25,713 nucleotides of DNA from a virus (taxonomy: Duplodnaviria > Heunggongvirae > Uroviricota > Caudoviricetes): IMG/VR virus record IMGVR_UViG_3300029877_000014; one strand, 5' to 3'. A program made the translations under genes and the position numbers. Below the pieces are notes generated by a model. That model had not been told where the DNA came from and did no database searches. It saw only the letters and a list, made by a program, of their open reading frames with translations. Of the stretch, positions 22,840 to 23,230 are shown in pieces; the stretch's first letter is position 1, and each line of letters begins with the position of its first letter.

Positions 22840-22914
22840 TGGAGCGGGTAGCGGGAATCGAACCCGCATCATCAGCTTGGAAGGCTGAGATAATAGCCAT
22901 TATACGATACCCGC
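22840..22914 (-). tRNA. tRNA-Gly (anticodon UCC), 75 nt including CCA
   Basis: Reverse complement folds as a cloverleaf: acceptor GCGGGTA/TACCCGC, anticodon stem TCAGC/GCTGA, loop CTTCCAA, T-loop GGTTCGATTCC, 3' CCA. Differs at a few positions from host glyT as I remember it. Confidence 0.9.
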
Positions 22915-22917
22915 ATA

Positions 22918-22993
22918 TGGTGCCGACTACCGGAATCGAACTGGTGACCTACTGATTACAAGTCAGTTGCTCTACCTACTGAGCTAAGTCGGC
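22918..22993 (-). tRNA. tRNA-Thr (anticodon UGU), 76 nt including CCA
   Basis: Reverse complement GCCGACTTAGCTCAGTAGGTAGAGCAACTGACTTGTAATCAGT...GGTAGTCGGCACCA: acceptor GCCGACT/AGTCGGC, anticodon loop CTTGTAA, T-loop TTCGATT. Resembles host thrU from memory. Only 3 nt separate it from tRNA-Gly. Confidence 0.9.
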
Positions 22994-23056
22994 ATTGGTT
23001 CTTCAGGGGAGCGATATCACCGAGCAAAGAAGAGTTCCCCCTCAGAACCGTTTTCG

Positions 23057-23084
23057 ATAATACGATTTAATATTCCAATCGCAA
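23057..23084 (-). promoter_or_regulatory. Candidate sigma70 promoter for the tRNA pair (-35 TTGCGA, 16-nt spacer, -10 TATTAT), with an AT-rich upstream tract
   Basis: Minus-strand hexamers read from sequence, about 60 nt upstream of the tRNA-Thr 5' end; 23101-23220 upstream is strongly AT-rich (UP-element-like). Identified by eye. Confidence 0.35.
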
Positions 23085-23230
23085 CAACACTTTGCGTCAA
23101 GTTATGTAAATTTATTTATATGTTTTTATTTTATGTGAATAATTCACTTTCACTTAAAATATATACAACAACATATAAATAAATTTATTTTGAAGGCGAT
23201 GATTAAATGTCGTTTCTGATATCACACCAC

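Follow-up and report, generated by a model that had tools for sequence, protein, structure and literature searches.

A thrU/glyT-type tRNA-Thr(UGU)/tRNA-Gly(UCC) pair as common cargo between the Q-like gene and the lysis genes of lambdoid phages

The tRNA Gene Pair and Its Host Counterparts

The DNA analyzed here, referred to as the window, is a stretch of 25,713 nucleotides (nt) from a virus of the class Caudoviricetes (IMG/VR record IMGVR_UViG_3300029877_000014). ARAGORN called exactly two tRNAs in this 25.7-kb window, a tRNA-Thr(UGU) and a tRNA-Gly(UCC), both on the minus strand and located between a Q-like late antiterminator gene and the first gene of the lysis cassette (Table 1). An initial annotation, made from the letters alone, had described them as lookalikes of the host thrU and glyT genes, lying 3 nt apart, without tyrU and with a slightly changed tRNA-Gly. 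The ARAGORN calls and the alignment to the host genes agreed with this description, which was accurate except that the minus strand was not stated and the terminator was misplaced.

The two genes are separated by the trinucleotide TAT, and both encode their CCA ends. With the Rfam tRNA model RF00005 they scored 73.8 (Thr) and 63.1 (Gly) bits against a gathering score of 29, on par with the host genes. Alignment to E. coli K-12 (locus L003) revealed that the tRNA-Thr matches thrU at every one of its 76 positions, while the tRNA-Gly is the same as glyT at 72 of 75 positions and carries the changes C6U, C25U, and G66A. Positions 6 and 66 are partners in the acceptor stem, and C6U and G66A are thus compensatory, while C25U converts the G10-C25 pair to G10-U25. 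The anticodons, UGU and UCC, and the sequences agree with the host thrU and glyT isoacceptors. The two genes are real and intact and, judged from their sequences, probably functional, rather than the failed calls or pseudogenes that had been named at the outset as grounds for rejection.

The E. coli thrU-tyrU-glyT-thrT-tufB operon is the source of both phage tRNA sequences, but its arrangement differs from that of the phage pair, which lacks tyrU and thrT and has 3 nt where the host has 209 nt between thrU and glyT. The promoter and the flanks of the operon are unrelated to the phage cassette, and when the cassette flanks were compared with the host thrU-tyrU-glyT-thrT operon nothing aligned beyond the tRNAs. 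Capture of a whole piece of chromosome was rejected because homology to the operon is limited to the tRNAs. In relatives whose flanks are 69-74% identical to the window, the tRNAs are 93-100% identical, a level of conservation that fits constraint or gene conversion.

Table 1. Features of the tRNA-bearing region in the window, listed from the Q-like gene toward the lysis genes.
Feature	Position	Strand	Evidence or remarks
Q-like late antiterminator gene (DUF1133), upstream neighbor of the cargo slot	23347..23889	minus	Pfam PF06576 1.2e-107; PF06530 4e-06
Conserved block: TTGATT 23350-23345, 17-nt spacer, TTCAAT 23327-23322, 28-nt core, hairpin 23267-23236	23236..23350	minus	Alignment of 7 relatives
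Whole cargo module (1,131 nt)	22099..23229	minus	Homology breakpoints by blastn and alignments
AT-rich tract upstream of the promoter-like element	23100..23229	minus	GC 0.17-0.29; partly kept in diverged copies
Promoter-like element: TTGACG 23100-23095; TTGCGA 23084-23079, 16-nt spacer, TATTAT 23062-23057	23057..23100	minus	Promoter scan and conservation
Leader hairpin (arms GGTTCT..GGGGG and CCCCT..AGAACC), 3 nt short of tRNA-Thr	22997..23049	minus	Arms conserved
tRNA-Thr(UGU)	22993-22918	minus	ARAGORN, Rfam; 76/76 identical to host thrU
tRNA-Gly(UCC)	22914-22840	minus	ARAGORN, Rfam; glyT-like with U6:A66 and U25
Conserved structured RNA: hairpin 22714-22631, multi-stem domain 22621-22523, terminator 22481-22462	22452..22714	minus	Fold and covariation
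Two more terminator-like hairpins at 22169-22154 and at 22126-22113, shortly before the holin	22113..22169	minus	Terminator scan
S21-type pinholin (essD), first lysis gene, downstream neighbor of the slot	21850..22065	minus	Pfam PF04971 4.8e-35; RefSeq essD

Genomic Context and Limits of the Cargo Module

On the minus strand, the genes DUF1367 (24775-24176), YbcO/DUF1364 (24176-23886), and DUF1133 precede the tRNA region, which is followed by the pinholin, a SAR-type lysozyme, Rz, and then trkG. The similarity of the DUF1133 protein to Phage_antitermQ is weak, and the gene is labeled “antitermination protein Q” in ON470595. The placement of the tRNAs between Q and the lysis genes, as initially annotated, agrees with this gene order, with its Q-like antiterminator gene and S21-type pinholin. 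The window is 99.99% identical to NZ_CP026723 (RefSeq) and ON470595 (GenBank) over 16760-25614, and both records have the same genes annotated, including both tRNAs; ON470595 is a prophage record from an in silico prophage survey and not an induced phage. The window stops matching both records at 25614, and its source genome therefore differs from them upstream of that point.

The limits of the module were set by two relatives. In locus L008, which has no tRNAs and the same DUF1367, DUF1364, DUF1133, and trkG genes, the blastn match runs up to 23230 and then diverges, while in locus L009, which has the tRNAs and another holin, it runs through 22099. Because the first match breaks at 23230 and the second at 22099, the module was taken as 23229-22099. 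Its boundaries are sharp, and it is present in some and absent from other phages that are otherwise related, in line with the initial description of a moron in the sense of a discrete, swappable unit of cargo. Other prophages with a DUF1133 gene hold different contents in the same slot, namely a hypothetical gene in L008, a DNA methyltransferase with tRNA-Ile and tRNA-Arg in O157:H7, and, in E. coli UMNF18 (L013 2962-4180), a scabin-related ADP-ribosyltransferase with an AB5 toxin binding subunit, located after the DUF1133 Q-like gene and a terminator. More generally, the site that follows the Q-like gene and the terminator is a hotspot for cargo.

Candidate Late Promoter Block and the Leader of the tRNAs

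The Q-like gene is followed by a conserved block whose TTGnnn motif overlaps the stop codon of that gene in the alignment of seven relatives. Its core, GCTTCGCAAAGCTGTATCGCGAGGCGAA, is invariant in 27 of 28 columns and is kept even in O157 and LT-IIb phages. The block ends in a terminator hairpin (-17.4 kcal/mol, z = -6.4), which has another sequence at the same place in the O157 relative, and every aligned relative diverges directly after the T-run of this terminator. The hairpin is part of the unit that moves together with the Q-like gene and is not part of the tRNA unit. A late promoter (pR’), its Q-utilization site, and its terminator (tR’) have to remain joined to the Q gene they serve, and the block, which has the look expected of such a set, is probably made up of these three elements; it would give a short RNA of about 80 nt. 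The similarity of the block to Rfam STnc370 is weak and below threshold (27.9 bits against 54), and a literature search found no described promoter or Q site for Q proteins of the DUF1133 type.

In the curated record of phage 21 the order is Q, pR’, tR’, tRNA-Asn, tRNA-Thr, and S21; pR’ starts 7 nt past the stop of Q, tR’ ends about 50 nt past the transcription start, and tRNA-Asn begins at the base after tR’. By analogy, the Q-antiterminated late transcript most likely includes the tRNAs of the window. In the lineage of the window, unlike in phage 21, tR’ and tRNA-Thr are about 240 nt apart. This leader begins with the AT-rich tract, whose GC content is 0.17 across 23100-23199, and continues with the promoter-like element and the leader hairpin. 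Where the flanks are 71-74% identical, TTGAC, TTGC, TATTAT, and the arms of the hairpin are kept and the sequence between them varies, a pattern of conservation that supports the element as a candidate promoter. TTGACG was considered as the -35 element and rejected for want of a conserved -10 element at 16-19 nt, and the combination TTGCGA-16-TATTAT was preferred. In TUM9757, L035, L094, and L119 the arms of the leader hairpin are kept and its loop is replaced; the fold of the hairpin alone is weak (-16.4 kcal/mol, z = -1.3).

Structured RNA and Terminators Downstream of the tRNAs

A terminator directly after tRNA-Gly was looked for and none was found. The first good one (-13.3 kcal/mol, followed by 8 U) lies 360 nt downstream of tRNA-Gly, at the end of the structured RNA, and is kept in all variants with differing loop sequences. 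The terminator attributed to the tRNAs in the initial annotation is only partly borne out, as the first good one lies outside the interval given for the pair. The term “autonomous” used there for the unit is too strong, since the tRNAs are placed directly downstream of the candidate pR’/tR’, in the path of the late transcript, and their terminator comes only after the structured RNA. Of the two terminator-like hairpins just upstream of the holin, the second is weak (-7.5 kcal/mol); the block containing both is conserved upstream of different holins.

The region of the structured RNA folds with z = -6.3, and RNAalifold, applied to 11 distinct variants, predicted 78 pairs, five of them with compensatory changes, and about 35 bp in the long hairpin. 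The 3’ part of this RNA resembles STnc100 (RF02076), a prophage small RNA, in its spot after the tRNAs, its terminator end, and a common CGGGAGGCACCCG hairpin; it differs in scoring 22.9 bits, below the gathering score of 47, and is therefore not a member by the Rfam criterion. True STnc100 is found at the equivalent spot after tRNAs in O157 (L011 4589-4797, 175 bits) and in phage JLK-2012 (L006 4975-5147, 107 bits). At the gathering threshold, Rfam returned only the two tRNAs in the whole window, and the sub-threshold matches to STnc100 and STnc370 serve as leads only.

Protein coding within 22839-22099 was considered and rejected: the open reading frames (ORFs) of 51 amino acids on the minus strand and of 105 and 41 amino acids on the plus strand have no Pfam match, and the region was taken as non-coding because homologues differ by 1-nt insertions or deletions. 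A possible ORF of 15 codons lies inside the long hairpin. A block of about 215 nt (22455-22240) is present in the window and several relatives, whereas LT-IIb copy 2 and strain 503440 lack it. On its plus strand is a terminator (22407-22430) that converges with the one on the minus strand, and a GGGACAAAGTCC hairpin occurs in it twice. The block may be either a small RNA gene on the plus strand or an insertion.

Distribution, Arrays, and Allelic Variation of the Thr-Gly Pair

The survey of genomes revealed that the pair is widespread. A 65-nt query spanning the Thr-Gly junction was found in 867 of 5,426 complete E. coli genomes (16%), and a 521-nt core consisting of the promoter region, the tRNAs, and 80 nt downstream was found in 192 of them, both at a coverage of at least 80%. 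The exact junction pattern occurs in at least 120 IMG/VR contigs and, among species-representative genomes, in E. coli (3 copies), Shigella flexneri (3), E. albertii, E. ruysiae, Citrobacter braakii, and Enterobacter hormaechei. Pattern matches in metagenome-assembled genomes of Bryobacteraceae, Anaerolineae, Rhizobacter, and Corallococcus were discarded as the extracted sequences are unrelated and are not tRNA cassettes. Deposited phages with the pair located after Q and before the lysis genes include the Shiga toxin (Stx) phage phi467, PhiR47_1 with a Met/Ile-Lys-Thr-Gly array, JLK-2012 with an Asn-Thr-Gly array, and the LT-IIb phage. The Prokaryotic Genome Annotation Pipeline (PGAP) annotates tRNA-Thr and tRNA-Gly in genomes with the cassette, as do the deposited phage records, and a literature search found no paper on the Thr-Gly cassette. 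The pair ranks among the commonest late-leader cargos of lambdoid phages in E. coli and is already annotated.

In the initial annotation, the pair was presented as a cargo different from ileZ-argN-argO, with the reservation that it might prove common and well annotated at the Q-S junction. Different from ileZ-argN-argO it is; new it is not, given its 867 genomes, the PGAP calls, and the annotated phages. The present analysis is of value mainly as a correction, in that Thr-Gly turns out to be a common rather than an unusual cargo of lambdoid phages, present in about one of six complete E. coli genomes. In Stx phages of the 933W and Sakai type, ileZ-argN-argO follows Q and precedes stx and the lysis genes. 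It resembles the pair of the window in slot and strand logic, past Q and a terminator and before the holin, and in comprising decoders of codons that are rare in E. coli; in the O157 locus L011, Ile and Arg tRNAs follow the same type of DUF1133 Q-like gene. It reads AUA and AGA/AGG, whereas the window pair reads ACA and GGA/GGG, consists of near-exact host copies, and has its own AT-rich, promoter-like leader.

Alleles and arrays were surveyed in 129 fused Thr-Gly cassettes (loci L017-L152). The pair stands alone in 53 of the 129 and often forms the 3’ end of larger Ile-Arg or Ile-Lys arrays: Ile(CAU)-‘Lys’-Thr-Gly accounts for 39 cassettes and Ile(CAU)-Arg(UCU)-Thr-Gly, in which Thr-Gly is appended to the Ile-Arg array known from the Stx phages, for 17. 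Host-identical sequences were found in 72 Thr and 60 Gly copies. Among the Thr copies, about 30 carry U16C with or without U20C, and 25 carry both T16C and T20C; both groups include all 16 untruncated Ile-Arg-Thr-Gly arrays. About six Thr copies have changes at position 42/43 that are expected to disrupt the CNG motif and leave a shorter anticodon stem.

Two unusual alleles were noted in the arrays. The ‘tRNA-Lys(UUU)’ of the Ile-Lys-Thr-Gly arrays (L005 3927-4003; L014 2257-2333) scores about 40 bits, is like the phage Arg(UCU) and not the host lysT, and may be an anticodon-shifted or defective derivative. In Escherichia phage SerU-LTIIb, the tRNA annotated as tRNA-Arg(UCU) (L007 1122-1197) is a thrU derivative with G35C, which converts UGU to UCU, and with A31G, G24A, T16C, and T20C; fused to the same tRNA-Gly, it represents an anticodon switch within the cassette.

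The same observations bear on the possibility that the tRNAs were picked up from the chromosome as passengers without a function of their own, and may act as identity patches for recombination in the late region of lambdoid phages. Array composition is combinatorial, the cassette of about 160 nt is the sole sequence that phi467, PhiR47_1, and JLK-2012 have in common with the window between Q and the holin, and the identity to host genes would permit gene conversion. We nevertheless consider such a passenger role decidedly unlikely, as conservation is much stronger in the tRNAs than in their flanks, the two acceptor-stem substitutions compensate each other, the Rfam scores equal those of the host genes, and the array repertoire is non-random, with decoders of NNA codons dominating.

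Codon Supply as the Probable Role of the Pair

Codon usage of 19 late ORFs of the window was compared with that of 37 K-12 genes. The codons read by the pair were enriched about twofold in the late genes: per thousand codons, ACA reached 13.4 against 5.9 (2.3-fold), GGA 15.5 against 7.3 (2.1-fold), and GGG 18.6 against 9.4 (2.0-fold). This result is consistent with the suggestion in the initial annotation that the cassette might reflect the codon demand of late genes. In the K-12 annotation, thrU and glyT are single genes, in accordance with their established single-copy status. In addition, the pair is joined in larger arrays by Ile(CAU) and Arg(UCU), whose codons AUA and AGA are the two with the highest enrichment in the window phage. 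The tRNA cluster of T4-type phages likewise includes Thr(UGU) and Gly(UCC); these tRNAs are only about 84% identical and belong to a larger cluster in a virulent phage. The tRNA set of T4 decodes A-ending codons rare in E. coli.

With a probability of roughly 60%, we interpret the pair as host-derived, thrU/glyT-type late-leader cargo that adds to the decoders of ACA and GGA/GGG and is expressed both as part of the late transcript and from its own probable promoter. The tRNAs, taken from the host, would be carried in the leader of the late operon of a lambdoid E. coli prophage, between the candidate pR’/tR’ block and the S21-type lysis cassette. Expression would follow two routes: transcription from the promoter-like element behind the AT-rich tract and, after induction, Q-modified late transcription that passes tR’ on the many copies of the replicated phage genome. 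The two tRNAs would then be freed by RNase P and 3’ trimming and, charged and modified by the host like its own, would add to the supply of two low-abundance decoders, each encoded by a single host gene, that serve ACA (and other ACN codons) and GGA/GGG. In the lysogen, the downstream terminators would keep transcription from the tRNA promoter off the lysis genes, and Q-modified polymerase would read through them. The analysis shows the genes, how closely they match the host genes, the limits of the module, the constraint on its sequence, its distribution, and the codon bias, while promoter activity, dependence on Q, and any effect of the cassette on fitness are inferred here.

Several observations weigh against this interpretation. 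The enrichment of ACA, GGA, and GGG is only twofold, and GGA and GGG are few in the lysis genes themselves; AGA/AGG and AUA are enriched 6-fold and 2.8-fold, respectively, yet the window phage has no Arg or Ile tRNA. The host-identical sequence could stem from recent capture or gene conversion and not from selection. Regarding the promoter, the element is a consensus match only, and promoter-like sites occur in the region at chance level (4 found against 3.3 expected). Of the promoter initially placed behind an AT-rich tract, the tract itself is thus confirmed, while the promoter is represented by a site that is conserved, yet of a kind expected by chance in such number. Finally, codon supply alone leaves unexplained, as a coincidence, that the P2 nuclease OLD strongly depletes both Thr(UGU) and Gly(UCC).

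The same leader could instead point to lysogenic conversion, in which constitutive expression from the cassette’s own promoter would provide minor tRNAs that help the host with horizontally acquired genes rich in ACA and GGA, and not phage late translation. The promoter-like element and the AT-rich tract, both missing from the tRNAs of phage 21, would suit this role, as would terminators that insulate the lysis genes and the retention of the cassette in 16% of complete genomes, many copies probably lying in defective prophages. ACA and GGA are also very frequent in trkG, a neighboring gene of the prophage whose codon use is strongly AT-skewed (GGA 26.5 and ACA 20.4 per thousand). We regard conversion as unlikely, because its promoter is a candidate only, because the same pair also occurs directly after other tRNAs, where there is no room for a promoter, and because the constant position in the late leader would be left unexplained. 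The trkG gene, which encodes a potassium transporter, lies inside the prophage directly after Rz (19297-20772, minus strand).

Relation to tRNA-Targeting Defenses

The initial annotation had also raised a counter to host tRNA-targeting defenses. The main target of OLD from P2 is tRNA-ThrU, and Thr(UGU) tRNAs of phages, phage 21 among them, rescue from it owing to an altered motif and a shorter stem, while host ThrU protects little or not at all (PMC12445682). In a 2026 preprint, Thr(UGU) and Gly(UCC) head the tRNAs depleted by OLD, within the five most depleted, and it is reported there that E. coli Thr(UGU) is without effect against OLD while the Thr of phage HK446 rescues (bioRxiv 10.64898/2026.07.10.737580). 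In the cited work on OLD, the Thr of T4 also rescues OLD toxicity. Thr(UGU), Lys(UUU), and Asn(GUU) are targets of AriB of the PARIS system, whose cleavage of tRNA-Lys is impaired by U16C (PMC12409363). The wider class of tRNAs is topical: for P2 OLD, Thr(UGU) is the key target, for PARIS it is among the prime ones, and resistant Thr tRNAs are encoded at this very site in phage 21 and HK446. Examples of phage tRNAs that resist OLD or PARIS are the Thr of phage 21, the Thr of HK446, and the tRNAs of T5.

The tRNA-Asn/tRNA-Thr(UGU) genes of phages 21, Sf6, SfI, BTP1, and HK446 resemble the pair of the window in their place right after tR’ and before an S21-type or other holin, and in the anticodon of the Thr. 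The Thr tRNAs of phage 21 and HK446 are strongly diverged, with an altered anticodon stem, and resistant to OLD (PMC12445682; bioRxiv 10.64898/2026.07.10.737580), whereas the Thr of the window is host ThrU. Phage 21 furthermore has no spacer or promoter between tR’ and its tRNAs, and the partner there is Asn and not Gly. Two lineages of Thr can be distinguished by sequence at this site, one diverged and of resistant type, the other host-identical and fused to Gly, with a minority carrying U16C or changes at 42/43.

The pair of the window has the same anticodons, UGU and UCC, as the host tRNAs targeted by OLD, and a counter-defense role would have it replace or out-supply host Thr(UGU) and Gly(UCC) cut by Toprim tRNases, such as P2 OLD and PARIS AriB, during lambdoid growth. 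That OLD is the classic excluder of lambda and hits tRNA-ThrU first, that both isoacceptors of the pair head the list of depleted tRNAs, that AriB also targets Thr(UGU), and that the resistant Thr tRNAs of phage 21 and HK446 occupy the same position between Q and the holin all speak for this role, as does the presence of U16C or CNG-breaking 42/43 changes in some Thr-Gly cassettes. The alleles of the window do not follow this pattern. Nuclease-evasion changes were looked for in the anticodon arm and the D-loop of both tRNAs (the CNG motif and stem for OLD; U16, U39, and A41 for AriB), and none was found. The tRNA-Thr is identical to ThrU at every published resistance determinant, with CUG 28-30, CAG 40-42, U16, and U36AAUCA41 all intact, and host ThrU, when expressed from a plasmid, protected little or not at all against OLD in each of the two studies. 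The tRNA-Gly keeps the glyT anticodon arm with its unchanged CAG/CUG stem, its changes being confined to positions 6, 66, and 25, and most of the surveyed cassettes are host-identical.

Counter-defense by the window pair is accordingly judged quite unlikely. The idea fits the class, in that OLD and PARIS target Thr(UGU), but not the host-type alleles found here: resistance is plausible for some relatives, as those with U16C or 42/43 changes may evade the nucleases, and is not supported for the allele of the window. A variant based on dosage, in which the pair would exist because Toprim tRNases of the P2 OLD type prefer Thr(UGU) and Gly(UCC) as substrates, and in which host-type copies in the late leader of a replicating lambdoid genome, or specifically the U6:A66/U25 Gly allele, would hold the OLD-cut pools above a lethal threshold until lysis, with the RNA weakly similar to STnc100 in the same unit, seems very improbable; if true, it would amount to counter-defense by dosage and not by resistance. 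The alleles of the survey form a natural series for testing supply against resistance, of which the window copy is the uninformative, host-type end.

Other Observations

Apart from the subjects treated above, the stretch 25189-25713 of the window was found to hold a C-terminal remnant only of the S8 peptidase IteS, which belongs to the anti-phage system IteAS.

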